Shown: positions 45,628 through 64,000 of the stretch, piece after piece | Position numbering within the stretch: the stretch's first letter is position 1 | Layout of the letters: each line of letters starts with the position of its first letter | Origin: Acaryochloridaceae cyanobacterium VAR_48_metabat_390 | GTDB taxonomy: Bacteria; Cyanobacteriota; Cyanobacteriia; Thermosynechococcales; Thermosynechococcaceae | Assembly (NCBI GenBank): GCA_031422435.1 | Contig: JANPLU010000030.1 | Location: 95,918 to 159,917 of the forward strand | Length of the DNA: 64,000 nt | Direction: 5' to 3' | Made by a program: the position numbers and the translations under genes | Notes under the pieces: model-generated | Databases searched by the model: none | Seen by the model: the letters and a program-made list of their open reading frames with translations, nothing else | What the model was told of the DNA's origin: nothing

Positions 45628-47067
45628 ATGACCTTTGCAGAAAAACTTGATGCCGCGGTTCAGCGCAATGCCAGTTTGCTCTGTCTCGGCTTAGATCCAA
45701 ACCCCGAAATGCTTCCTATTCAATCTCAGGAGTCTTTCGCATCTTTAGGTGAAACACTCAAGGATTGGCTAGAAACAGTTGTGGCACAAACCCAAACGTT
45801 GGTGTGTGCCTATAAACCAACCCTTGGGTTCTATCTGGCCTTGGGCGCTGAGGGACTGGATCTGCTGACAGCGATTCTAGGCTGTATCCCTGACGATATT
45901 CCGGTCATTTTAGACGCGAAGCACAGCGATCTGAATACCGCATCTCAGCTTTCTAAAACATTTTTTGACCAGTGGCGCGTGGATACCGTGACCGTGAATC
46001 CCTATATGGGTCAAGAAGGGGTTACGCCATTTTTGCTTTATCCGGACCGTGCAGTCTTTGTCTTAACCCATACGTCTAATCCCTCTGCTGAGGTTATACA
46101 ATCCTACCCTAATGCGGAGATGCCCCTCTATTTAGAAGTGGTAAAGGCTGTTCAAAGTTGGGGTAGCCCCGATCAGTTGGGGCTGGAGGTGGGTACGACA
46201 GAGCCTTTGGTGTTAAGGCAGGTTAGGGCGATCGCCCCCGAGCGCACAATCCTTGCCCGCAGTATCTGGTCAGACACAACAGACCTGAAGGCTATTCTAG
46301 AGGCTGGACTCAACAGTGCTGGAGCTGGACTGCTGCTGCCCGTCCCTCAAGACTGGTTAGGTGAAGCCCAGTTAAACCAGCATGTACAGACCCTTCGCCA
46401 AGATATTAATACGCTGCGAGATCAGCTCAGCCAAGGGCCATCCACCTGCGATCTCTGGCAGCCTCAACGTCAACAAATGCCGCTGAACCCGAGTCAGGCA
46501 TTGATTGTGCAGCTTTATGACATTGGCTGCCTGATGTTTGGCAGCTATGTCCAAGCCTCTGGCGCGGTTTTTCCCTACTACATTGATCTGCGACAAATAA
46601 TTTCTAATCCGCAGCTTTTTCATCAGGTGTTAGAAGCCTATGCTGTTCTAACGCAGCCGCTGAAGTTTGACCGCATTGCAGGCATTCCCTACGGATCGTT
46701 GCCCACAGCTACGGGATTATCTCTCAAGCTCAACCATCCCATGATCTATCCGCGCAAAGAAGTGAAAGCCCACGGCACTCGTCGTCTAGTGGAAGGTCAG
46801 TACGAGTCAGGCGAAACGGCGCTGGTGATTGATGATGTCTTGATTACAGGGAAAAGCGTTCTCGAAGGCATCCAAAAGCTGGAAAGCTCTGGGCTAAAAG
46901 TCACAGATATTGTGGTCTTAATTGACCATGAAGGGGGAGTACGAGACAAAATGCAGGCGCACGGTTACCAAACCCATGCCGTCTTTACGCTGTCAGAAAT
47001 TTCTAAGACACTCTACGAAACTCAGCGCATTACTGAGACGCAGTATGGGGCGATCGCCCACGATTAA
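45628..47067 (+). CDS. pyrFE: Bifunctional OMP decarboxylase / orotate phosphoribosyltransferase
   Basis: LCLGLDP, AYKP and LDAKHSD in the N-terminal half; YYIDLR, RKEVKAHG and IDDVLITGKS in the C-terminal half. Confidence 0.92.
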   Translation: MTFAEKLDAAVQRNASLLCLGLDPNPEMLPIQSQESFASLGETLKDWLETVVAQTQTLVCAYKPTLGFYLALGAEGLDLLTAILGCIPDDIPVILDAKHSDLNTASQLSKTFFDQWRVDTVTVNPYMGQEGVTPFLLYPDRAVFVLTHTSNPSAEVIQSYPNAEMPLYLEVVKAVQSWGSPDQLGLEVGTTEPLVLRQVRAIAPERTILARSIWSDTTDLKAILEAGLNSAGAGLLLPVPQDWLGEAQLNQHVQTLRQDINTLRDQLSQGPSTCDLWQPQRQQMPLNPSQALIVQLYDIGCLMFGSYVQASGAVFPYYIDLRQIISNPQLFHQVLEAYAVLTQPLKFDRIAGIPYGSLPTATGLSLKLNHPMIYPRKEVKAHGTRRLVEGQYESGETALVIDDVLITGKSVLEGIQKLESSGLKVTDIVVLIDHEGGVRDKMQAHGYQTHAVFTLSEISKTLYETQRITETQYGAIAHD

Positions 47068-51992: not shown

Positions 51993-52508
51993 GAACAGCC
52001 TAAAGATGTCGAGAGACTCGACTTTTGCAAAAGTCTCTCTGGCGTGGTTTAGCTGCCACCACTTATTTTAGTGTAGGGGTGATTGATAAAATGTTGACTG
52101 CTTTCAGATTAGGCAAATTAGGCAAGCACCAGCTTGGCACAAAGCCTCAAGACAGACCTCCTCCACCATTACCTCTTAGATTTTTGAGTTTGCAGTGGCT
52201 GGTTGCGATGAGCGTTGTGCAACAAAGTCATAAGAAACGGGCACACTCGTATGGAAGGCAGGGTATTTGTACAGTCTAAATCAGGGATGCAGTTAAAATT
52301 CTTGCGAAAGAAGGTTTAGGGATGGTTTCATTTACGATTGCCTGAGGTCGCAACATATCCTGCATACAGATTGAGTAGACTTAAGACTGTTTTCAAAGAT
52401 CCCTACGAGAAGAACTTTCATTATCCTGTGGGTGGTTCCTTCACCATGTGATTTTGTGCATCAGTCTAGAGCTTGGTTCTATGGGAGCAAATGCTCAGGG
52501 TAAGGGAT

Positions 52509-52910
52509 ATGGCGAGTCGAGCAATTTTATGCGTAGATGATGAGCGCGTTGTGCTGTTTAGCTTGCGAGATCAGCTCACAAAACATTTTGGCGATCGCTA
52601 TCGCTGTGAAATTGCTGAAAGCACCGATGAAGCCTGGGAGGTCATTGAAGAGCTTCAGGAAGAGCAGGTCAAAATTCTGGTGATTGTTTCGGACTGGCTA
52701 ATGCCCGGGATGCGAGGAGATGAATTTCTGATCCAGGTTCATCAGCGCTTCCCAGATATTGTTACGGTTCTTTTGACGGGGCACGCGGACGAATCCGCCA
52801 TTGAGCGCGCGCGGCAAGAGGCAAATTTGTTTGCCTATGTGACTAAGCCTTGGCGTGAAGCAGCCCTCATCACGGTCATTCAATCTGGTTTGGAGACATT
52901 TGATGCGTAA
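52509..52910 (+). CDS. Single-domain response regulator (receiver only)
   Basis: ILCVDDE, VSDWLMPGM, LLTG and YVTKPW; ATG at 52509. Confidence 0.92.
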   Translation: MASRAILCVDDERVVLFSLRDQLTKHFGDRYRCEIAESTDEAWEVIEELQEEQVKILVIVSDWLMPGMRGDEFLIQVHQRFPDIVTVLLTGHADESAIERARQEANLFAYVTKPWREAALITVIQSGLETFDA

Positions 52911-54810
52911 ACGGGTAATCCTTTGCATTGATGACGAAAGGATGGTGTTGTTTAGCCTGCGGGATCAGTTGAGCTGGATTCTTAAGGAGGGTTACAGTAT
53001 CGAGCTGGCGGAAAGTGGCGAAGAAGCCTTGGATTTATTTGCAGAACTCACCGCAGAGAGTATTGATATCCCTCTGGTGATTTGCGATCAAATTATGCCA
53101 AGAATGAGCGGGTCAGAACTACTCACTCAAATTCATCGCCAGTCGCCTAAAACGCTCAAGATTATGCTGACAGGAATGGCTAGCTTTGAGGATGTGGTGC
53201 AGGCGGTTAACCACGCCAGTCTCTATCGCTATATCACCAAACCTTGGGACAAAACAGATCTCAGCCTAACCGTGCGAGAGGCGCTGCGGCGTTATGAGCA
53301 AGAGACGCAGGTCGCAAACCAGAACTGCATCTTACAGCAGATGAATGCAGATTTGGAACGCGAGATTGCCGAGCGCCATCTTGTGGAAGCGAAGTTAGCC
53401 CATGATGCGCTCCATGATGCCCTGACTGGATTACCCAATCGTGTGCTGTTTTTAAATCGGCTGGAGCAGACGGTTCAAACCGCTCAGGAAAGTTCCGACT
53501 ATCAATTTGCGGTTTTGTTTATTGACCTAGATCGCTTCAAAATTGTGAATGATAGTTTAGGGCATACCGTAGGGGATGAGTTTTTAAAGGCGATCGCCCA
53601 ACGGCTTCGTCATTGCTTACGACCCGCAGACCTGGTGGCGCGAATGGGTGGAGATGAATTCACCATTTTGCTTGAAAACATTGATAGTGCTAGCGAAGCA
53701 ACCCAAGTTTCAGATCGAATTTTGACCATGCTGAGCAACCCCTTTAACTTAGAGGGGCACATCCTCGTCTCTAGCGCTAGCATTGGCATCATCATCGGTT
53801 CTGATCAATACCAGCGGGGTGCCGATTTACTGAGAGATGCCGATTTAGCAATGTATCAGGCCAAAGCCTGCGGTAAAGCCCGCGCTGCGTTTTTCAATCC
53901 AGACCTACATGCTCAAACACTGGCGTTACTGACGTTAGAAAGCGACCTCCGCCAAGCCTTAATCCAGCAGGAATTTGTCCTGCACTACCAGCCCATTGTG
54001 GCTTTAACGACGGGACAGTTGGTTGGCCTTGAAGCCCTCGTCCGATGGCAGCATCCGCAGCGGGGCTTTATTGCACCCAATGAATTTATCCCCGTTGCTG
54101 AAGAAACTGGGGTCATTATTGCCCTTGGCGAATGGGTCTTACGGGAAGCCTGTCGCCAACTGCGCCTCTGGTATCAGGCGTTTCCTGAGTGGGGGAACCT
54201 GAGCGTCAGTGTTAATTTATCGGGGAAACAGCTTCGAGAACCCGATTTGACCGCGCAACTGGCGCAAATTTTGAAAGAAACAGGGCTAGAGGGCCAATTG
54301 CTTAAGCTAGAGCTAACGGAAAGTGTCTTGATTGGTGACGCAGAGGCAATACTGCAAACCCTCGCTGGCATCCATGCCCAAAAGATTCAGTTCAGCATTG
54401 ATGATTTTGGAACGGGCTATTCCTCCCTGAGCTATCTGCCCCGTTTTCCTATTAGCGCCCTCAAAATTGATCGCTCTTTTGTGAGCCAGATGCTCACGGA
54501 TGCTGACAACTTTGAGATTGTGAAAGCCATTATTACCCTAGCTCACAGCCTTGGCCTACAGGTGGTGGCGGAGGGAATCGAAACGCCTGAGCAAGCCGCT
54601 CAACTACGAGCCTTCGGCTGTGAATTTGGGCAAGGCTACTTTTTTGGCAGGCCGATGGATAGCGCTGCTACAGAGCAAATTCTGATAACTCCGATAGGAT
54701 GGCAGATGTCTGTAGATATAGACCCATCATGCCCAAAAAATGCCCAGGAAAACACGAATGAGCGGAAGGGAACAGAGTACAGATTGTTTATGTGTTCACC
54801 AGTGGATTGA
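52903..54810 (+). CDS. REC-GGDEF-EAL c-di-GMP enzyme
   Basis: ILCIDDE/ICDQIMP receiver, RPAD-x5-GGDEF, EALVRW and DDFGTGYSSL; ATG overlaps the upstream stop (ATGCGTAA) after GGAG. Confidence 0.94.
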   Translation: MRKRVILCIDDERMVLFSLRDQLSWILKEGYSIELAESGEEALDLFAELTAESIDIPLVICDQIMPRMSGSELLTQIHRQSPKTLKIMLTGMASFEDVVQAVNHASLYRYITKPWDKTDLSLTVREALRRYEQETQVANQNCILQQMNADLEREIAERHLVEAKLAHDALHDALTGLPNRVLFLNRLEQTVQTAQESSDYQFAVLFIDLDRFKIVNDSLGHTVGDEFLKAIAQRLRHCLRPADLVARMGGDEFTILLENIDSASEATQVSDRILTMLSNPFNLEGHILVSSASIGIIIGSDQYQRGADLLRDADLAMYQAKACGKARAAFFNPDLHAQTLALLTLESDLRQALIQQEFVLHYQPIVALTTGQLVGLEALVRWQHPQRGFIAPNEFIPVAEETGVIIALGEWVLREACRQLRLWYQAFPEWGNLSVSVNLSGKQLREPDLTAQLAQILKETGLEGQLLKLELTESVLIGDAEAILQTLAGIHAQKIQFSIDDFGTGYSSLSYLPRFPISALKIDRSFVSQMLTDADNFEIVKAIITLAHSLGLQVVAEGIETPEQAAQLRAFGCEFGQGYFFGRPMDSAATEQILITPIGWQMSVDIDPSCPKNAQENTNERKGTEYRLFMCSPVD

Positions 54811-57800
54811 AGCTCGGACTGCCCAAACGCCTCAAGCGATCGCCGTTGAGTTTGCTGCTCAGCAGTGGCGCTACGAGGCGTTAAATCAACGGGCGAATCA
54901 ACTGGCTCATACTCTGCGGAAGCTGGGGGTGGGTCCCGAAACCTTGGTGGGTCTCTGTATTGAGCGATCGCCGTTGATGATAGTGGGACTATTGGCCATC
55001 CTCAAGGCTGGGGGAGCCTATGTCCCCCTTGACCCTACCTACCCCAGGGAGCGAATTGCCCTCATGCTGGAGGATTCGCAGCTTTCAGTGCTGCTCACCC
55101 TAGAGCATCATCAAGATGCGCTACCCCCCCATCAAGGCAAAGTTTTTTGTCTCGACACCGATTGGGAAACAATCGCGCAAGAATCCGTTGAGAACCCTGA
55201 GCCGTTGGTGCTGCCGACGAATTTGGCTTACGTCATCTACACGTCGGGTTCTACGGGCAAGCCGAAAGGGGTCATGATTGAGCATCGCGCTCTAGCCAAT
55301 TTTGTTGAGGCGGCTAGCCGTGCCTATGCGATCGCACCAGAGGATCGGGTGCTTCAGTTTGCCTCCATTAGCTTTGACGCAGCGGTGGAAGAAATTTTTC
55401 CGGCCTTATGCTGTGGTGCAACCGTGGTGCTGCGAACCCAGGACATGCTGCGGTCGATCCCAGCCTTTGTAGAAACCTGTCGGAACTGGCAGATCACCCT
55501 TTGGGATTTGCCCACGGCGTTTTGGCATAAGCTCTGTGCTGAACTAAAGCGGGTAGTGCTACCCGAGTCTTTGCGCTTGGTCATTATTGGCGGAGAACGT
55601 GCCTTACCGCGCTGGCTGATGGCTTGGCGGCAGCAGGTAAACCCCCAAATTCGCCTCGTGAACACCTACGGTCCCACCGAAGCAACGGTCGTCGCCACTT
55701 GGTGCGATTTAGCAGGCCCTCAAGCCGTTGATACCTCTACCCGACTCCTCCCCATTGGTCAAGCCGTTGACAACATGCAGGTTCACATTTTAGATGACGA
55801 GCTGCGTCCGGTTCGGGTCGGGACACCTGGAGAGCTGTATCTGGGGGGCGTGGGGTTAGCCAGGGGCTATCTGCATCGCGCCGATTTAACCGCCGTCAAG
55901 TTTATTCAAACGCCCCAGAGTCGGGCGCGGGGCGATCGCCTCTACCGCACGGGCGATGTGGTGTGCTGTCGAGAAGATGGTCATCTCACGTTTCTAGACC
56001 GAGTTGACCACCAAGAGAAAATTCGCGGGTTCCGTGTGGAGCTAGGTGAAATTGAAGCGGTGTTAGAGCAGCATCCCATCGTACAGAACGCCGTGGTGGT
56101 AGCGCGGGAGGAAACACCGGGCGACAAACGGTTGGTCGCCTACGTGGTGCAGAACCCCCAGGGGGCGATCTCAGATCACTCCTTTGTAACGCCTCACCTT
56201 GAAACCGAACAAATTGCCCAGTGGCGGCTGATCCACGATGATGACAGCTTTAACCCTGCCGAGGCTCACTGGGATCCGACCTTTAATGTGAGTGGATGGC
56301 TCAATAGCTACACCGGACAGCAAATCCCCGATGTTGAAATGCGCGAGTGGGTGAACAACACCGTCAACCGAATTTTATCTCTGCAGCCGCGCCGCGCCCT
56401 CGAAATTGGCTGTGGCACGGGCTTGATACTTTTTCGGGTGGCTCCCCACTGCCATACCTATGTGGGCACCGATTTCTCAAAAGTGTCGCTCCAGCACATT
56501 CAGCAGCAGCTCACCCGTCCCGATCTGCACTTGCCTCAGGTGCAGCTCTTTGATCGGATGGCAGACGACCTCAGCGGTCTTGCGCCCCACTCCTTTGATA
56601 CGGTCATTATCAACTCAGTGATTCAATATTTTCCTAGCGCTCAGTATCTGGTAAAGGTGATTGAGGGAGCCTTGCAGGTCGTAGAGCCAGGAGGATTTAT
56701 CTTCATTGGCGATGTTCGTCACTACCCCCTGCTAGATGCCTTTGCCGCCTCAGTTGAGCTGTTTCAGGCTCCCGATGCTCTGCCAACGGAAGAGCTGCGA
56801 CGACGGGTACAAAAGCGGCGACGTCAAGAAGAAGAACTGACGCTAGATCCAGCCTTTTTTGATGCCCTCCAGCAGCAGTTTCCGCAAATTTCCCAAGTCC
56901 AGGTGCTTGTAAAAGAAGGCGTTCATCACAACGAACTCACCCGCTTCCGCTATGATGCCATTCTTCAAGTTGGCCCAGCGCCGCGCCCTTGCTTCGAGCA
57001 TCCCTGGCTTGACTGGCAGCAGGATAATCTAACCATCTCGACCATTCGTCAACGGCTGCAAAAGACTCAGCCAGAAGTTTTAGGCATCCGAGGCGTTCCT
57101 GATGCCCGTGTTTTAGCCGATGTGCAAACAGCTCGCCTCCTCGCCAGCGACGATGCCCCAACAACCGCTGGGGAAATCCGCCAGATGCTCTTAGCCCAAC
57201 TCTATGGAGTAGATCCCCAAGAATTTTGGCAGCTTGGCCGTGATTTGTGCTACGCCACCGCCTTAAGCTGCTTAGGGACTGGTGCAGCAGGCTGTTACGA
57301 TGTGCTGCTGCATCGCCGTTCTGCCGTCACCTACAGGAGTCTCCCCTGGATTTTGTCTGCGACCCCCGCACAAACGCTGTTTCTGCAACCCTGGTATCAG
57401 TATGCCAACAATCCGCTCCAGGGCAAGATCGTCCATAACCTAGTGCCCCAGTTGCGGCACTATCTCAAGGAAAAACTGCCTGCCTACATGGTGCCCTCGA
57501 CGTTTGTGATGTTAGAGGCGCTGCCCATGACCCCCAACGGCAAGGTGGATCGGCGCGCACTCCCCGCCCCCAGTTCTGATCGCCCTGCTTTAGAGATCGA
57601 ATTTGTGGCACCCCGTACCCCCATCGAACTGCAGCTAGCCGAGATTTGGACCCAGGTGATTGGCATTGAACAGGTGGGAATTTATGACAGCTTCTTTGAA
57701 TTGGGGGGCGATTCGCTGCGGGTCACGCAGTTGATTTTTCGGGTGGAAGAGGCGCTTCAGGTGGTGGTGCCACTGCTGGAGTTTTTTAAGGTTCCTACCA

Positions 57801-59101
57801 TTCATGGACTCCGAGAATATATCCATTTGGGCGATCGCCACCACCGCCGCCATCACCCAGCCACCGCGTTCATGAGCCTGTCCCAACTTCAGGCCGAAGC
57901 CCAGCTCGATCCGAGCATTCAATCGCCCTTGGAACCACCAGAGGGAGCAGAGATATCCATCGCCGCACCGCAACGCTTTTTCTTGACAGGCGCGACCGGA
58001 TTTCTGGGAACCTTTTTACTCCATGAACTGCTCCAACAAACCGAGGCGACGGTTTACTGTCTTGTCCGGGCGCAAACGGCGCAAGAGGGAAGCCAAAAGC
58101 TACAGCACGCCCTAGAGCGATATTTGCCCGATGTCGCGTTTCCCTACGCCCGCATTGTGCCTCTACGGGGCGACCTATCTCAGCCCTGGCTGGGGCTACC
58201 CGAGGCGAAGTTTCAAGAATTAGCCCATTCCCTAGACGGAATTTATCACTGCGGTGCCAGCGTCAACCTGATCTATCCCTACGCGACCCTCCGCGCGGCT
58301 AATGTTTTGGGCACTCAGGAAATCTTAAAGCTGACCAGTTACGGAAAACGCAAGCCCGTTCACTATATTTCGACCTTGGATGTGTTTGAATCCCTGGCCG
58401 CCACTGGGGTAGCAACCATTCGAGAAGAAGACAGTATTGCCCAAGGTTTAGGGATTTCTGGAGGCTACGCCCAAAGCAAATGGGTTGCCGAGCAGCTAAT
58501 GACCCAGGCTCAGTCGAGAGGGCTGCCTGTCTGCATTTACCGTCCAGGGCTGGTCACTGGGCACAGTCAAACCGGAATTGCCAATACTGAAGATCTGGTG
58601 AGTCGCTGGATCAAAGGCTTGATTCAGCTCAACTGTTCACCCCTGCTCGATCTCAGCATTGACATGTCGCCTGTGGACTACATCAGTAGGGCGATCGCCT
58701 ACCTGTCGCTCCAGCCCCAGTCCTACGGCCACACCTTCCATCTTGTTAACCCCCAACCTTTAGCCCTGAAAGACTTTGTGCAAGAACTCAATCGTCTCGG
58801 CTATCCGCTCCAGCAGGTGCCTTACGCCCAATGGCAGGCACTACTCCAGGCAGAAACCAACGCCCTCAGCCCCTTGAGTGCTGTTCTCACCGAGTCGATG
58901 GCAAAACAGTCCCTGACCCGCCTCGAAATTTGGCTAGCAGGCAACCAGATCTTTGACGGTCGCCAGACCCTTCAAGCCCTAGCCGATAGCGGCATGACTT
59001 GCCCCGCCGTAGACGATAGGCTCTTGGACTGCTATCTAACCTACCTCACTCGCAGTGGGTTTTTAGACACTCCTCACGCCCATACGTCCATTTCTCAATA
59101 A
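54740..59101 (+). CDS. Monomodular NRPS-like enzyme: A - embedded N-methyltransferase - PCP - terminal thioester reductase (no C domain)
   Basis: YTSGSTGKPKG, YGPTE, YRTGD, KIRGFRVELGEIE, LEIGCGTG, NGKVDR, LGGDSL, TGATGFLG and YAQSK; start at 54740 or 54758. Confidence 0.93.
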   Translation: MPRKTRMSGREQSTDCLCVHQWIEARTAQTPQAIAVEFAAQQWRYEALNQRANQLAHTLRKLGVGPETLVGLCIERSPLMIVGLLAILKAGGAYVPLDPTYPRERIALMLEDSQLSVLLTLEHHQDALPPHQGKVFCLDTDWETIAQESVENPEPLVLPTNLAYVIYTSGSTGKPKGVMIEHRALANFVEAASRAYAIAPEDRVLQFASISFDAAVEEIFPALCCGATVVLRTQDMLRSIPAFVETCRNWQITLWDLPTAFWHKLCAELKRVVLPESLRLVIIGGERALPRWLMAWRQQVNPQIRLVNTYGPTEATVVATWCDLAGPQAVDTSTRLLPIGQAVDNMQVHILDDELRPVRVGTPGELYLGGVGLARGYLHRADLTAVKFIQTPQSRARGDRLYRTGDVVCCREDGHLTFLDRVDHQEKIRGFRVELGEIEAVLEQHPIVQNAVVVAREETPGDKRLVAYVVQNPQGAISDHSFVTPHLETEQIAQWRLIHDDDSFNPAEAHWDPTFNVSGWLNSYTGQQIPDVEMREWVNNTVNRILSLQPRRALEIGCGTGLILFRVAPHCHTYVGTDFSKVSLQHIQQQLTRPDLHLPQVQLFDRMADDLSGLAPHSFDTVIINSVIQYFPSAQYLVKVIEGALQVVEPGGFIFIGDVRHYPLLDAFAASVELFQAPDALPTEELRRRVQKRRRQEEELTLDPAFFDALQQQFPQISQVQVLVKEGVHHNELTRFRYDAILQVGPAPRPCFEHPWLDWQQDNLTISTIRQRLQKTQPEVLGIRGVPDARVLADVQTARLLASDDAPTTAGEIRQMLLAQLYGVDPQEFWQLGRDLCYATALSCLGTGAAGCYDVLLHRRSAVTYRSLPWILSATPAQTLFLQPWYQYANNPLQGKIVHNLVPQLRHYLKEKLPAYMVPSTFVMLEALPMTPNGKVDRRALPAPSSDRPALEIEFVAPRTPIELQLAEIWTQVIGIEQVGIYDSFFELGGDSLRVTQLIFRVEEALQVVVPLLEFFKVPTIHGLREYIHLGDRHHRRHHPATAFMSLSQLQAEAQLDPSIQSPLEPPEGAEISIAAPQRFFLTGATGFLGTFLLHELLQQTEATVYCLVRAQTAQEGSQKLQHALERYLPDVAFPYARIVPLRGDLSQPWLGLPEAKFQELAHSLDGIYHCGASVNLIYPYATLRAANVLGTQEILKLTSYGKRKPVHYISTLDVFESLAATGVATIREEDSIAQGLGISGGYAQSKWVAEQLMTQAQSRGLPVCIYRPGLVTGHSQTGIANTEDLVSRWIKGLIQLNCSPLLDLSIDMSPVDYISRAIAYLSLQPQSYGHTFHLVNPQPLALKDFVQELNRLGYPLQQVPYAQWQALLQAETNALSPLSAVLTESMAKQSLTRLEIWLAGNQIFDGRQTLQALADSGMTCPAVDDRLLDCYLTYLTRSGFLDTPHAHTSISQ

Positions 59102-59126: not shown

Positions 59127-59909
59127 ATGTCAACAGCAGATATTCCCTACGCCAACTACACCGCTTGGAGCGCCACCGAGTACCTCAATGAGTACTACAG
59201 CGACATCATGTCCGACGAAAAATTCTGTCTAGAGTTTTTGGTGGCAGCCTTGCAGCATACCCCAGACGTTCCGGTGGCGCTGGACTTTGGCAGTGGCCCC
59301 ATTATTTCGCACATTTTGCCTTTAGTCGCTAAAGCCCAAACGGTCATCATGTCAGAATATTTAGAGTCCAACTGTGCGGCTGTGCAGCAGTGGCTGTCTG
59401 GTCACGCCGAAGCCCATAACTGGAACCCGTTTACGCAAGAAGTTTTATGTTTAGAAGGCAATCTGTCCCCAATGGCAGCGGATATTCAGGCCCGCGAGCA
59501 GTTGGTTCGCCAACGGGTGACTCAAGTGCTGCCTGGAGATGTGCGGGATGCCAATCCTTTAGGTTTAGAAAAGCGGGAATTTTTTCCGCTGGTAAGCGCC
59601 CACTACTGCGCAGAAGGCATTAGCCCCGATCTAGACCAGTGGCGCGCCTACATGGGCAATATTATGAGCATGGTGAAGCCCGGGGGCACGCTCATTACCT
59701 CCTCCTGCGGGTCTGGCATCTTTTATAAGGTTGCCGATCAGTATTTTCCATCTACTAAGCTAGAGCCTCAAGATGTGCTGAACTGCTTTTGGGAAAACGG
59801 ATTCATCGACCTGGATATTCGCGTCCGGCAACTGCCAGAGTATTTCTCGGCAGAGCAGGGCTTTTTCTATACTATTTTTGCCTGCGGGGTCAAATCAGAT
59901 CAGACTTAA
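59127..59909 (+). CDS. NNMT/PNMT/TEMT-family SAM-dependent N-methyltransferase
   Basis: EYLNEYY, LDFGSGP, HNWNPF, GDVRDANPL, VKPGGTL and YKVADQYFPS parallel the NNMT-family motif order. Confidence 0.85.
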   Translation: MSTADIPYANYTAWSATEYLNEYYSDIMSDEKFCLEFLVAALQHTPDVPVALDFGSGPIISHILPLVAKAQTVIMSEYLESNCAAVQQWLSGHAEAHNWNPFTQEVLCLEGNLSPMAADIQAREQLVRQRVTQVLPGDVRDANPLGLEKREFFPLVSAHYCAEGISPDLDQWRAYMGNIMSMVKPGGTLITSSCGSGIFYKVADQYFPSTKLEPQDVLNCFWENGFIDLDIRVRQLPEYFSAEQGFFYTIFACGVKSDQT

Positions 59910-59994: not shown

Positions 59995-62430
59995 ATGCTA
60001 AGGCAAGCACCGCAGTTTATTAGTCAGATTACGAAACGATTACCGCTGCGGATCGTTCTCACCGTTCCCTTTGTGCTACAGGTGCTTGCTGCCACTGGGT
60101 TGGTGGGCTATCTTTCAATTCGCAACGGCCAGAAAGCCGTGAACGACCTTGCGCTTCAGCTTCAGCAACAGGTCAGCGCCCGTGTCGATCAGCATTTGAA
60201 TAGCTACCTCGTACTGCCGCATCAAATCAACCAGCTCAACCTAGAGGCCATTCAGCGCGGACAGCTCGACCTCAAAAATCTGAATGAATCAGGGCGCTAT
60301 TTTTGGAAACAAGCCCAGATTTTCAAAAATTTCAGCTTCATTGGCTATGCTTTGCAGGACAACACCAACGTGGGGGCAGGGCGATGGTTGAAAGGGCAAG
60401 ATTTGGTCATCACCTACCATCCAGGGGGCAGTACCAAAGACTACACCTATACCGCTGACAACCAAGGGAATCGTACCAAACAAGTTCTTACCGCAGACTA
60501 CGATGCCCTTACCGATGCGTGGTACAAAGAAACCGTAAAGGCGGGGAAACCCTTGTGGAGCCGTGTGAGCGTTGCAGAGGGGTTTGGTTCTCATGGGTAC
60601 ATTTATGCCTCCGCCAATGTGCCCATTTATAACCAGAAGCACCAACTGCTCGGCGCATTGGGGACTGATTTACTGCTGTCGGATATCAATACCTTCCTAA
60701 AGGGAATCAAGGTGAGTCCGTTAGGGAAAATCTTTATCATGGAGCGGAACGGTTTGCTGATCGCCAATTCCGGTTCATTTCCAACCTACAAACTGATTAA
60801 CAACACAGAGACGCAGCGCATTAATGCCCTAGAAAGCGACTCACCCCAAATTCGCACAGCGGCTCAATATCTCAAACAGAAGTTTGGCACGTTTGAGACG
60901 ATTCGCTCTAGCCAACAGCTTGAATTTGTATCCAGCACATTAGAGTCGCATTCATCAATGCTTGGGGGGCAGCAGAATCGTCAATTTATCAGCGTGATGC
61001 CCTGGCAAGATCGGTACGGGCTGGATTGGCTCGTGGTTGTGCTGGTGCCCGAAGCAGATTTTATGGAGCAGATTAATACCAATACCAACACAACCATCTT
61101 TCTATGCGTTCTGGCGATCGCCGTTTCTGTAATGCTTGGCATCTTCACCGCAGAATGGGTCAGCCGACCCATTCTGCGAATCAATCAGGCTGCCAAGGCG
61201 ATCGCAGGAGGAGATTTTGTCCAAACCATCGCCCTGAAGCGACGCGATGAATTAGGCGAGTTATCTCACTCCTTTGACCGTATGGCTGCTCAATTACAAA
61301 CCTCCTTTAGCGAATTAAAAGATCTCAACACAGCGCTTTCCGCCAGCGAACAACGCCTCGCCAGCTACAACCAAGTTCTAGAGCAGCAGGTGCAACAACG
61401 CACTCAGGAATTGTCCCAAACCCTGCAACAGCTCCAGTCCGCTCAGCAAGAAATCATCCAGTCTGAAAAAATGGCGGCTTTAGGGCAGCTCGTGGCAGGT
61501 ATTGCCCATGAAATCAACTCTCCATTAGGGGCTATTCAAGCCTCCGTGAGCAACATTAGCACCGCGCTAGATCAGCTCCTGCTGGAGTTTCCCCCTCTGC
61601 TGCAAACTCTATCCCCAGTACACCAAACGAGTTTCTTTACCCTAATCGAGTGGGCAAGACAACCCAGAGATCTCCTCCCCCCCCGCGTAGAGCGCCAACT
61701 GCGGCGCACCATTCAGCAAACCCTGACGGAGCAGGGCATAGAAGAAGCCGAACTTGCCGCCCAGTCGCTGAGTCGAATGGGGTTTACCTCCAGCTTAGAC
61801 CCCATTCTGCCGCTGTTGCAAATTCCCAACACCCTTGACCTTCTGGGAGCGGCACATCACCTTTCCACCATTCAACACAATAGTCAGAACACGCAGATGG
61901 CGGTAGAGAAATCATCCAGAATTGTCTATGCGCTCAAAGCGTTTGTCCGTCAAGATGGCTCAACCCAACCCATTCGAGCGTCTGTGGTAGACAGTATTGA
62001 AACGGTTCTGACGCTGTATCAGCACCATTGCCAAAATGGCATTGAGATGATTAAAAGCATCGCGCCAGTCCCCGATATTCTTTGTTACCCCGACGATCTT
62101 GCCCAGGTCTGGTCTAATCTCATTGGAAATGCCGTGCAGTCCATGAACTATCGCGGTCGATTAGAGATTGGAGTTAACGTGCAAAACCAGAATGTTGTTG
62201 TTGAGATCATCGATTGTGGCATCGGAATTCCGCTCAACATTCAAGACAAAGTGTTTGAGCCATTCTTTACAACCAAGCCATCTGGAGAAGGGAGTGGGTT
62301 AGGACTCAGTATCGTTAAGAAAATTGTGGATAAACATCATGGAAAAGTAGAGCTAGAGAGTATGGCTGGGGCAACGGTTTTTCGAGTGTGGCTGCCGCTT
62401 GACCCTGAACCTTTAGCACTGCAACTGTAG
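59995..62430 (+). CDS. Membrane sensor histidine kinase (TM-Cache-TM-HAMP-HisKA-HATPase)
   Basis: Two TM segments, extracytoplasmic Cache region, HAMP (DELGELSHSFDRM), AHEINSPL, NLIGNA, FEPFFTTK and GSGLGL. Confidence 0.92.
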   Translation: MLRQAPQFISQITKRLPLRIVLTVPFVLQVLAATGLVGYLSIRNGQKAVNDLALQLQQQVSARVDQHLNSYLVLPHQINQLNLEAIQRGQLDLKNLNESGRYFWKQAQIFKNFSFIGYALQDNTNVGAGRWLKGQDLVITYHPGGSTKDYTYTADNQGNRTKQVLTADYDALTDAWYKETVKAGKPLWSRVSVAEGFGSHGYIYASANVPIYNQKHQLLGALGTDLLLSDINTFLKGIKVSPLGKIFIMERNGLLIANSGSFPTYKLINNTETQRINALESDSPQIRTAAQYLKQKFGTFETIRSSQQLEFVSSTLESHSSMLGGQQNRQFISVMPWQDRYGLDWLVVVLVPEADFMEQINTNTNTTIFLCVLAIAVSVMLGIFTAEWVSRPILRINQAAKAIAGGDFVQTIALKRRDELGELSHSFDRMAAQLQTSFSELKDLNTALSASEQRLASYNQVLEQQVQQRTQELSQTLQQLQSAQQEIIQSEKMAALGQLVAGIAHEINSPLGAIQASVSNISTALDQLLLEFPPLLQTLSPVHQTSFFTLIEWARQPRDLLPPRVERQLRRTIQQTLTEQGIEEAELAAQSLSRMGFTSSLDPILPLLQIPNTLDLLGAAHHLSTIQHNSQNTQMAVEKSSRIVYALKAFVRQDGSTQPIRASVVDSIETVLTLYQHHCQNGIEMIKSIAPVPDILCYPDDLAQVWSNLIGNAVQSMNYRGRLEIGVNVQNQNVVVEIIDCGIGIPLNIQDKVFEPFFTTKPSGEGSGLGLSIVKKIVDKHHGKVELESMAGATVFRVWLPLDPEPLALQL

Positions 62431-62445
62431 AGCAAGGAACGCAAA

Positions 62446-64000
62446 ATGCCGATCAGGTCTCTACAGAATTTTATAAACAGCTTCCCCTGTCGGTACTCGC
62501 TGCGGTTTGTCTTCACGGTACCTTTTGTGTTGCAGGTTGTGACGATCACCAGCTTGGTCGGATACCTCTCCTTTCGGAATGGGCAGAAAGCGGTCAATGA
62601 CCTCGCCCACCAGCTCCAACAGGAGGTGAGCGCTCGCGTTGAGCAACATCTCCATACCTACCTCACCCTCCCCCATCAGCTCAACCAGCTCAATGCGGAT
62701 GCGATACAGCAGGGGGTTTTGAACCTCCAAGACTTTCAACGCTCAGGGCGCTATTTGTGGAAGCAGGCGCAGGTGTATCAGACCATCAGTTGGCTGGGCT
62801 ACTATTTACCAACCGGAGAGGGCGCAGGCGCTGGGCGCTGGGTCAAGGGGCAGAAGGGGCTAACCATTGACCAAGTCAGCCGCAGCCCCAAAGGCGTATA
62901 TAGCGTCTACGCAACTAATGCTCAGGGCGATCGCCTAAAGGTCGTCAGCACCACTGAGTACAACCCTGTCCCCGATACTTGGTATCAAAATGCGCTAAAG
63001 GCTAGAAAGCCAGCCTGGGGTAAGGTCTTTGTGTCTCAAGCCTTTAAGAACTATGTGGCGTTGCCTGCGACCTATCCACTCTACAGTCGAGATCGTCGTC
63101 TGGTTGCCATTTTGGGCGTTGATTTACTGCTGTCCAACATTAGCGATTTTCTGCGCACCATTAAAGCCAGCCCTTCGGGCAAAATTTTTATCATTGAGCG
63201 CAGCGGGCTGTTGATTGCCAGCTCTGGAACACAATCTCCCTCTACCGTTGTGCAGGGTGTTACCCAGCGCCTGAATATTCTAGACAGCGCTGACCCCCAG
63301 ATGAAAGCCGTCGCCAAGCAGCTGGAAACCACCTTTGGATCCTTCAGCGCCATTCAGAAGCAGCAAGAACTGATCTTGCCACTTTCGCTCAATTCTTCTT
63401 TTGGGCAGCAGCAGCGTCAGTTTGTCCATGTCACTCCCTGGCAAGATCGGTTTGGGCTGGACTGGCTGGTGGTCGTGATGGTGCCAGAATCTGACTTTAT
63501 GGCTCAAATTAACGCCAATACCCAGACCACGCTCGCCCTTTGTCTGCTCGCCCTTTGTCTCTCTATTGCGATCGGCATTCTAACCGCACGCTGGGTCGCC
63601 CACCCTGTTCTGCGCTTAAACCAAGCGGCAAAAGCCATTGCCAGTGGAGATTTAGAGCAAATTGTGGAGTCATCAGAGCGCCAAGACGAGGTGGGGGAGC
63701 TAACCCAATCTTTTAACAATATGGCGAAGCAATTGCAAACCTCTTTTGGAGATTTACAGTCCTTAAACACCGCCCTCAACGAGAGTCAGCAGCAGTTAGC
63801 CCAGACCAATCAAACCCTAGAACAACAGGTTCAAGAACGCACCCATGAACTATCCTTTGCCCTGGCGCAGCTTCAGGATGCTCAAGACGAAGTTATTCAA
63901 TCGAAAAAGATGGTGCAATCGGAAAAAATGGCCGATCTGGGTCAGCTCATTGCGGGGATTGTCCACGACATTAATACGCCCTTGGGAGCCATCCAAGCCT
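62446..64000 (+). CDS. Second paralogous Cache-HAMP sensor histidine kinase (3' truncated by window edge; not in ORF track)
   Basis: Frame read by hand, open from ATG 62446 to the end: MPIRSLQNF...VPFVLQV...[16 protein letters not shown]...[13 protein letters not shown]...[16 protein letters not shown]. Confidence 0.9.

Follow-up and report, generated by a model that had tools for sequence, protein, structure and literature searches.

A candidate synthase-receptor cassette in a cyanobacterium: dCache_1 histidine kinases with an acidic pocket beside a standalone NRPS-like enzyme

How cyanobacterial cells signal to one another is poorly defined, and the ligands of most dCache domains are not known. 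LuxM/LuxN, CqsA/CqsS and RpfF/RpfC/RpfG are quorum systems in which a synthase is matched by a cognate sensor kinase. Pvf/Ham-type systems and the ATRed enzymes of Xenorhabdus employ a standalone nonribosomal peptide synthetase (NRPS)-like protein with adenylation (A), thiolation (T) and reductase (R) domains, which releases a small molecule derived from an amino aldehyde (PMC10194917, PMC7586950). Products of the Pvf NRPS autoinduce, the Pvf receptor being still sought (PMC10194917), and ATRed aldehydes dimerise to pyrazines (PMC7586950). Among dCache_1 sensors, the PctA amino-acid motif (class dCache_1AA) binds the carboxyl group through Arg126; in the amine class, dCache_1AM, this position varies (it is Gln165 in PacA), and ligand binding depends on cation-pi aromatics (PMC10104139). 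The purine class, dCache_1PU, has the McpH motif Y121/R129/W140/F167/D169, with Gly185 of McpH at the PctA D173 site (PMC11245519). We analysed herein 64,000 nucleotides of DNA from Acaryochloridaceae cyanobacterium VAR_48_metabat_390 (the window; assembly GCA_031422435.1, JANPLU010000030.1:95,918-159,917, forward strand), in which an A-T-R enzyme adjoins two dCache_1 histidine kinases.

Six genes, all on the (+) strand, form a run in which neighbours overlap or are 15-85 base pairs (bp) apart: a REC response regulator, a REC-GGDEF-EAL protein that is likely the cyclic di-GMP (c-di-GMP) output, an NRPS with a methyltransferase (MT) inserted, A-(MT)-T-R, an NNMT-family methyltransferase, and two histidine kinases, kinase 1 and kinase 2 (Table 1). 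The evidence leans, by a little, toward a synthase-receptor cassette for a methylated, carboxylate-free amine derived from Lys, Arg or Orn, which would be sensed by both kinases and relayed to the c-di-GMP enzyme. Like the Lux, Cqs and Rpf systems, the locus sets a synthase next to a membrane histidine kinase, with c-di-GMP output as in Rpf; it differs from them in its synthase chemistry and extracytoplasmic dCache_1 sensor. Compared with Pvf, Ham and ATRed, its A domain is interrupted by the MT and has a basic code, the locus lacks an N-oxygenase, and a gene for a putative receptor lies alongside.

The weight of the finding rests more on the family of such cassettes than on a single substitution in the sensors, which are named below by the residue at the PctA Arg126 site (Asp in both window kinases). 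A close relative of the NNMT-family gene adjoined an Asp sensor at 11 of 12 genome loci, the twelfth being a 5.6-kb contig, and the layout of NRPS, methyltransferase and Asp sensor is kept in other cyanobacteria; the conserved synthase-receptor adjacency that marks a synthase-cognate receptor cassette was found. The 20 synthase-linked Asp sensors do not form one clade (approximately unbiased test, p-AU 4e-5; 6 changes; the linked group was named after the first tree had been inspected). Linkage therefore recurred, and synthases appear to have joined the Asp subgroup on more than one occasion.

The enzymes within these cassettes vary. In loci L012 and L013 an MT-fused group II pyridoxal phosphate (PLP) decarboxylase stands in place of the NRPS, and it is a second route to removal of the carboxylate. 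Among its PDB matches, 4OBU, which we take to be a tryptophan decarboxylase, and aromatic decarboxylases came ahead of the desferrioxamine and diaminobutyrate (DABA) enzymes. The gene set at these two loci (L012:7334-10777, L013:7619-10780), an aromatic-type PLP decarboxylase and an NNMT/PNMT-family methyltransferase beside the Asp sensor, may in itself give bacteria a route to N-methylated arylethylamines. Sensor residue 129 was Gly in all 14 linked sensors with an NNMT gene and Gln in all 6 that lacked one, each trait changing 3 times on a tree from which those columns had been left out, and PF01234 gave no match in the six Gln genomes, with G158 as the positive control. Two loci, L243:5775-14585 and L244:1661-10395, combine A-MT-T-R, a HalD/BesD-like halogenase, a SET-domain protein and an Asp sensor with AAQRWP, and possibly make a chlorinated variant of the signal.

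Pairing of a standalone synthase with a dCache kinase was also seen with other A-domain codes. In a survey of 55 R-domain loci, a selection made by open reading frame (ORF) length and rank from the listed matches, a dCache kinase lay downstream, on the same strand and within 552 bp, of 15 of the 24 standalone A(-x)-T-R genes, and directly downstream of 0/23 multimodule genes with a condensation domain (C-A-T-R) and 0/8 other R genes; five of the 15 loci are near-identical, and the Fisher P of 2e-6 overstates the contrast, kin not being independent. The other standalone cassettes have the codes DVQFIAQVV, DLFNNALTY and DILQ-type, presumably Pro, Ala and Gly types, and their sensors belong either to an amine-motif-like type (best PDB matches at L205: the amine receptors 3LI8, 3LIB and PacA) or to a third type without clear PDB match. 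Sensor type appears to change with A-domain code across cassettes. The window's own genome carries a second cassette on contig C107 (L223:4572-13062), with A-T-R (DVQFIAQVV), an amine-motif-like dCache hybrid kinase and its own REC-GGDEF-EAL.

Further architectures were seen among these loci. In L206:9021-12752, L207:6586-10284 and L234:9420-12785, a standalone A-T-R enzyme has PilZ inserted at the MT position of the window NRPS, which would permit c-di-GMP feedback onto the synthase. At L210:5949-12168, downstream of A-MT-T-R with a Gly-type code come a choline/ethanolamine-kinase-like gene and then an EamA transporter, and no sensor, which suggests a methylethanolamine/choline route. At L230:6346-12556, a standalone A-T-R gene precedes a hybrid kinase with a multi-pass membrane domain in its N-terminal 520 residues; this part is amino-acid permease-like by eye and has no Pfam match.

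The core catalytic motifs of the window NRPS are intact. Its A-domain code, extracted by alignment to the GrsA code positions, is DAEDIGTVVK, the commonest code among the related proteins scored (28/80, duplicates included). The best NCBIfam model for the enzyme, though far below cut-off, is MxcG of myxochelin biosynthesis, which presumably loads lysine; the window NRPS differs in having no MxcG-type condensation domain. The neighbouring methyltransferase passes the NCBIfam GntF cut-off (NF041360, 113.6 bits) and is 32% identical to GntF of a gnt-like cluster, L082; GntF, of guanitoxin biosynthesis, is taken here to methylate an amine. A guanitoxin (gnt) cluster was ruled out, as the proteins of the L082 cluster have their best matches scattered over six contigs, at 23-45% identity, leaving the other gnt genes without clustered close counterparts in this genome. 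Seven of the ten code positions are common to DAEDIGTVVK and the Arg and Arg/Lys codes of ApnA A1 (PMC5311044, Table 2), and the window A domain is predicted to load a basic amino acid. Apart from that paper on related codes, no literature match to the exact code was found.

On the receptor side, a first-pass annotation had read YDALTDAWY and YNPVPDTWY in the two kinases, with Asp replacing the carboxylate-binding Arg and a distal Asp kept downstream in GTDLLL and GVDLLL; the first two motifs stand where it placed them, and both distal motifs are present (Table 1). Its assignment to dCache_1 held, Pfam PF02743 scoring 47.4 and 51 bits against a curated cut-off of 45. In a phmmer search of the PDB, YDALTDAWY aligned ungapped with YDPRTRAWY of PctC, and GTD with the distal GD of PctC. 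A family profile of 96 sequences gave the identical register against four amino-acid receptors, including PscC, Mlp24 and Mlp37; the Asp is in register with the carboxylate-binding Arg, as had been claimed. A confident AlphaFold model of the kinase 1 sensor (predicted local distance difference test, pLDDT, 92.6), which two transmembrane (TM) segments bracket in the protein, has a long N-terminal helix and two PAS-like modules, and in fold it matches dCache_1 structures. Foldseek ranked amine receptors at the top by small margins (9HEH, PctD, McpX, 3LIB, TlpQ), and the VIA fold comparison gave PscC Z 21.3 (root-mean-square deviation (rmsd) 2.8, 237 aligned), PctD Z 21.2 (rmsd 3.3, 260 aligned) and PctA Z 18.1. 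Given the ungapped register, the side chain of Asp174 would face the pocket. Among 121 aligned close homologues the site is D in 85 and E in 21, and Arg was found in 0/109; judged from these alignments, the acidic site is conserved and not due to chance.

The best PDB sequence matches are dCache_1AA sensors (PctA, PctB, PctC, PscC, Mlp24, Mlp37), with which the window domains have in common the fold, Tyr121, Trp128-Tyr129 and the distal Asp173. They differ in having Asp at the Arg126 site, Ser192 (kinase 1) or Phe (kinase 2) at the Tyr144 site, Ala or Ser, respectively, at the Asp146 site, an extra hairpin, and a length of ~320 amino acids (aa) versus ~240-270. Membership in dCache_1AA was ruled out by Asp at PctA 126 and the missing Tyr144 equivalent, though the equivalents of Tyr121, Trp128 and Asp173 are kept. 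With the dCache_1AM sensors PctD, PacA, McpX and Methanosarcina 3LIB they share the loss of Arg, an aromatic pair (Trp176-Tyr177 in kinase 1; F188/Y189 in PctD), the distal Asp (Asp225; D235 in PctD) and a longer domain (PMC10104139). The hairpin, present in the kinase 1 model, and a conserved Arg130 may be compared, at the level of model and alignment, with the dCache_1AM insertion and its R103-D133 pair. The hydrophobic M215 and S217 positions of dCache_1AM, counted from the shared Pro, would be Tyr204/Ser206 in kinase 1 and Ala/Pro in kinase 2. The window kinases have no aromatic at the McpX Tyr139/PctD Trp155 and PacA Tyr186/PctD Tyr206 sites (McpX Y139 aligns, pairwise and by sequence only, to a gap beside Thr151, and a neighbouring Tyr could substitute), and their family has a conserved acid where dCache_1AM is variable; canonical dCache_1AM membership was ruled out on the missing cation-pi aromatics. 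To call the Asp "as expected for an amine ligand", as the first-pass annotation did, was thus an overstatement, as the described dCache_1AM site is not conserved and its aromatics are absent here (PMC10104139). Membership in dCache_1PU was ruled out by the Asp kept at the D173 site, McpH scoring only 24.9 bits with the family profile. By alignment, then, the window domains are dCache_1 domains that lie outside the amino-acid, amine and purine ligand classes.

In the proposed cassette, the A domain would load lysine, arginine or ornithine, the inserted MT would methylate the loaded amino acid, and the R domain would release an aldehyde or alcohol, possibly cyclised, with an alcohol, a cyclic imine or a dimer as candidates. 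The NNMT-type enzyme would add further N-methyls. The product would leave the cell and bind between Asp174 and Asp225; a pocket that has an Asp at either end, and small residues at positions 127 and 129, would be well filled by a dication. Phosphate would pass from the kinases to the REC and REC-GGDEF-EAL proteins. The kinases differ from each other at several pocket positions, and what they read is probably different methylation states of one signal or else related signals.

The acid alone says less than was first supposed. In a context-free survey of the best 150 representatives (149 scored, with a profile that was built from acid-rich rows and is biased accordingly), the Arg126 site was Glu in 96, Arg in 17, Ala in 14, Asp in 12 and another residue in 10, that is, acidic in 108/149. 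A second set, with DNA context, comprised 168 distinct sensors (181 before identical domains were collapsed), window duplicates and 29 short loci refetched with longer flanks being left out. Its classes were synthase-linked, unlinked with at least 4 kb on both sides (well-flanked), and short flanks, for which the counts, in that order, were 20, 16 and 8 for Asp; 2, 51 and 38 for Glu; 0, 3 and 3 for Arg; and 0, 19 and 8 for other residues. Asp accounted for 20/22 linked sensors versus 24/146 unlinked ones (16/89 if well-flanked), so that the outcome named in the first-pass annotation as telling against it, an equal frequency in unlinked kinases, was not observed; the Fisher P of 2e-10 overstates the difference, since many linked loci were reached via the synthase and kin are not independent. 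An acid was present in 113/146 unlinked sensors.

An acid at this site is the norm of the whole cyanobacterial family, and Asp alone is weak evidence of synthase-receptor matching, because the acid is family-wide, no synthase is in view for 24 of the 44 Asp sensors, and amine receptors that are already known need no Asp there. FastTree placed the Asp group inside Glu-bearing relatives, and the local change was therefore probably Glu to Asp; the Arg-to-Asp change, once offered as an independent hint of matching, is not supported in that role. What survives of the earlier amine-sensor reading is the dCache_1 assignment, the register of the Asp and its enrichment beside synthases. As a stand-alone marker of synthase linkage, Asp was ruled out by the orphan Asp sensors and the family-wide acid. 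The acidic site is older than the cassette, with Glu in most of the family, and would suit the pocket to cations. The family profile scores 2,735 clusters at 50% identity with E up to 1e-30, not all acidic at the site, and the ESM Atlas returned generic dCache clusters only.

Glu sensors have features of their own. Trp occupies the PacA Tyr186 cation-pi site in 77/91, and those at L109 and L145 adjoin an A-T-R gene; it is plausible that this subgroup is a separate methylammonium-binding class. A third family sensor in the window's own genome (contig C32, L224:6829-10626) is of the Glu type and lies beside response regulators without a synthase in view.

Several observations weigh against the cassette reading, in addition to the Asp sensors with no synthase in view. 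Asp sensors reached by the kinase 1 or A1 query were 6 linked and 24 unlinked. The closest relatives of kinase 1 (L178, L163-L165) are orphans, with SelO, nitrate transport, PhoD or transposase genes as neighbours, and in kinase 1 itself the Tyr144 equivalent is gone. The Asp sensor at L045 adjoins a terpene synthase and a P450, and L182 has NNMT and A-T-R genes without a kinase in view. The co-variation of Gly and Gln at residue 129 amounts to only 2 independent pairs (p 0.5 by sign test), and a SET methyltransferase is present in two of the Gln cassettes. The decarboxylase of L012 and L013 is nearer to aromatic than to Lys/DABA enzymes, and Asp pockets therefore need not share one ligand. 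As a separate observation, two loci, L045:4177-10405 (Asp) and L149 (Glu), have the terpene synthase and P450 pair oriented divergently from a Cache kinase.

It is conceivable, though we consider it unlikely, that what the kinases detect is an amine of the polyamine or methylamine type that is common in the environment or the cell, the link to the biosynthetic genes being regulatory and not one of ligand and receptor. Orphan Asp and Glu sensors are far commoner than the synthase (sensor relatives in 121/401 phylum genomes, the NNMT-family methyltransferase in 4/401, two of these close; within one family, 40/251 and 4/251), kinase 1 groups with the orphans, and the first Foldseek ranks are receptors for choline, betaine, methylamine and histamine. 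However, a purely regulatory link predicts neither that sensor type should track the A-domain code nor that residue 129 should track the methyltransferase.

We find it improbable that the window cassette was reassembled, with one or both kinases being passengers or listeners to another strain's signal. Neither kinase falls in the main linked clade. Kinase 1, with Ser at the Tyr144 site, has Tyr204 where 18/20 linked sensors have Ala, and kinase 2 has Gln195 and Pro206; moreover, the REC and REC-GGDEF-EAL module is paired with different sensors within the genus, adjoining L178, the sister of kinase 1. Nonetheless, both kinases retain GAGRW, the two Asp residues and the phospho-His box, and the genes are closely spaced on one strand. 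A recent tandem duplication as the origin of the two kinases was ruled out by their 51% sensor identity and separate tree branches.

Least probable is a pocket for an amino acid or neutral ligand with a structural Asp, in which water or Arg130 of GAGRW (present in 20/20 linked and 17/24 unlinked Asp sensors) would replace Arg126: amino-acid receptors are the best PDB sequence matches and PscC is level with PctD in the VIA comparison, but Arg126 is the residue that binds the carboxyl group in the amino-acid motif (PMC10104139), strand alternation taken from the PscC alignment would place Arg130 opposite Gly127/Gly129/Trp131, and every linked synthase removes the carboxylate.

Features of the locus are collected in Table 1. 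A promoter and terminator scan was uninformative, promoters being not above shuffles (5 vs 7.9), and a look-up of sequencing runs listed none that hold RNA. Elsewhere in the window, a 479-aa ORF (45628-47067) resembles, by eye, an orotidine monophosphate (OMP) decarboxylase/orotate phosphoribosyltransferase fusion.

Table 1. Genes and sensor motifs of the candidate cassette, in window coordinates
Feature	Position	Strand	Basis
REC, single-domain response regulator	52473..52910	+	ORF; Pfam Response_reg
REC-GGDEF-EAL protein, motifs GGDEF, EAL, DDFGTG	52903..54810	+	Pfam; motifs
Standalone NRPS-like A-(MT insert)-T-R enzyme, A-domain code DAEDIGTVVK	54740..59101	+	Pfam; code; catalytic motifs
NNMT/PNMT/TEMT-family N-methyltransferase, distant GntF relative	59127..59909	+	Pfam; NCBIfam NF041360 113.6 bits
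Histidine kinase 1, TM-dCache_1-TM-HAMP-HisKA-HATPase, 811 aa, ATG at 59995	59995..62430	+	ORF; Pfam
Kinase 1 GAGRW strand, contains Gly129	60373..60387	+	sequence
Kinase 1 YDALTDAWY; Asp174 = 60514-60516, PctA Arg126 site	60499..60525	+	translation; alignment
Kinase 1 GTDLLL; distal Asp225, equivalent of PctA Asp173/PctD Asp235	60661..60678	+	alignment
Histidine kinase 2, TM-dCache_1-TM-HAMP-start of HisKA, truncated by contig end (C30)	62446..64000	+	ORF; Pfam
Kinase 2 GAGRW strand	62827..62841	+	sequence
Kinase 2 YNPVPDTWY; Asp177 = 62974-62976, PctA Arg126 site	62959..62985	+	translation; alignment
Kinase 2 GVDLLL; distal Asp226	63115..63132	+	sequence

Searches of the open-access full-text literature found no published description of either the cassette or the acidic pocket. 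The synthase-receptor cassette proposed here names a candidate signal synthase and a candidate receptor together. If the proposal is true, dCache_1 would gain an acidic-pocket class next to its amino-acid, amine and purine classes, and there would be a receptor model for signals made by A-T-R enzymes, which is missing for Pvf. More broadly, and with slightly more doubt than confidence, we suggest that cyanobacteria may use widespread amine signals derived from amino acids. Their makers would be decarboxylases or standalone A(-MT)-T-R enzymes, with tailoring by interchangeable N-methyltransferase, SET or halogenase proteins, and each would have its own dCache_1 kinase to match. The Asp/Glu-x-Trp-Tyr pocket would then represent a new cation ligand class, in which the Asp subgroup would read methylated amines derived from Lys, Arg or Orn, and the orphan sensors, like LuxR solos, would be listeners.

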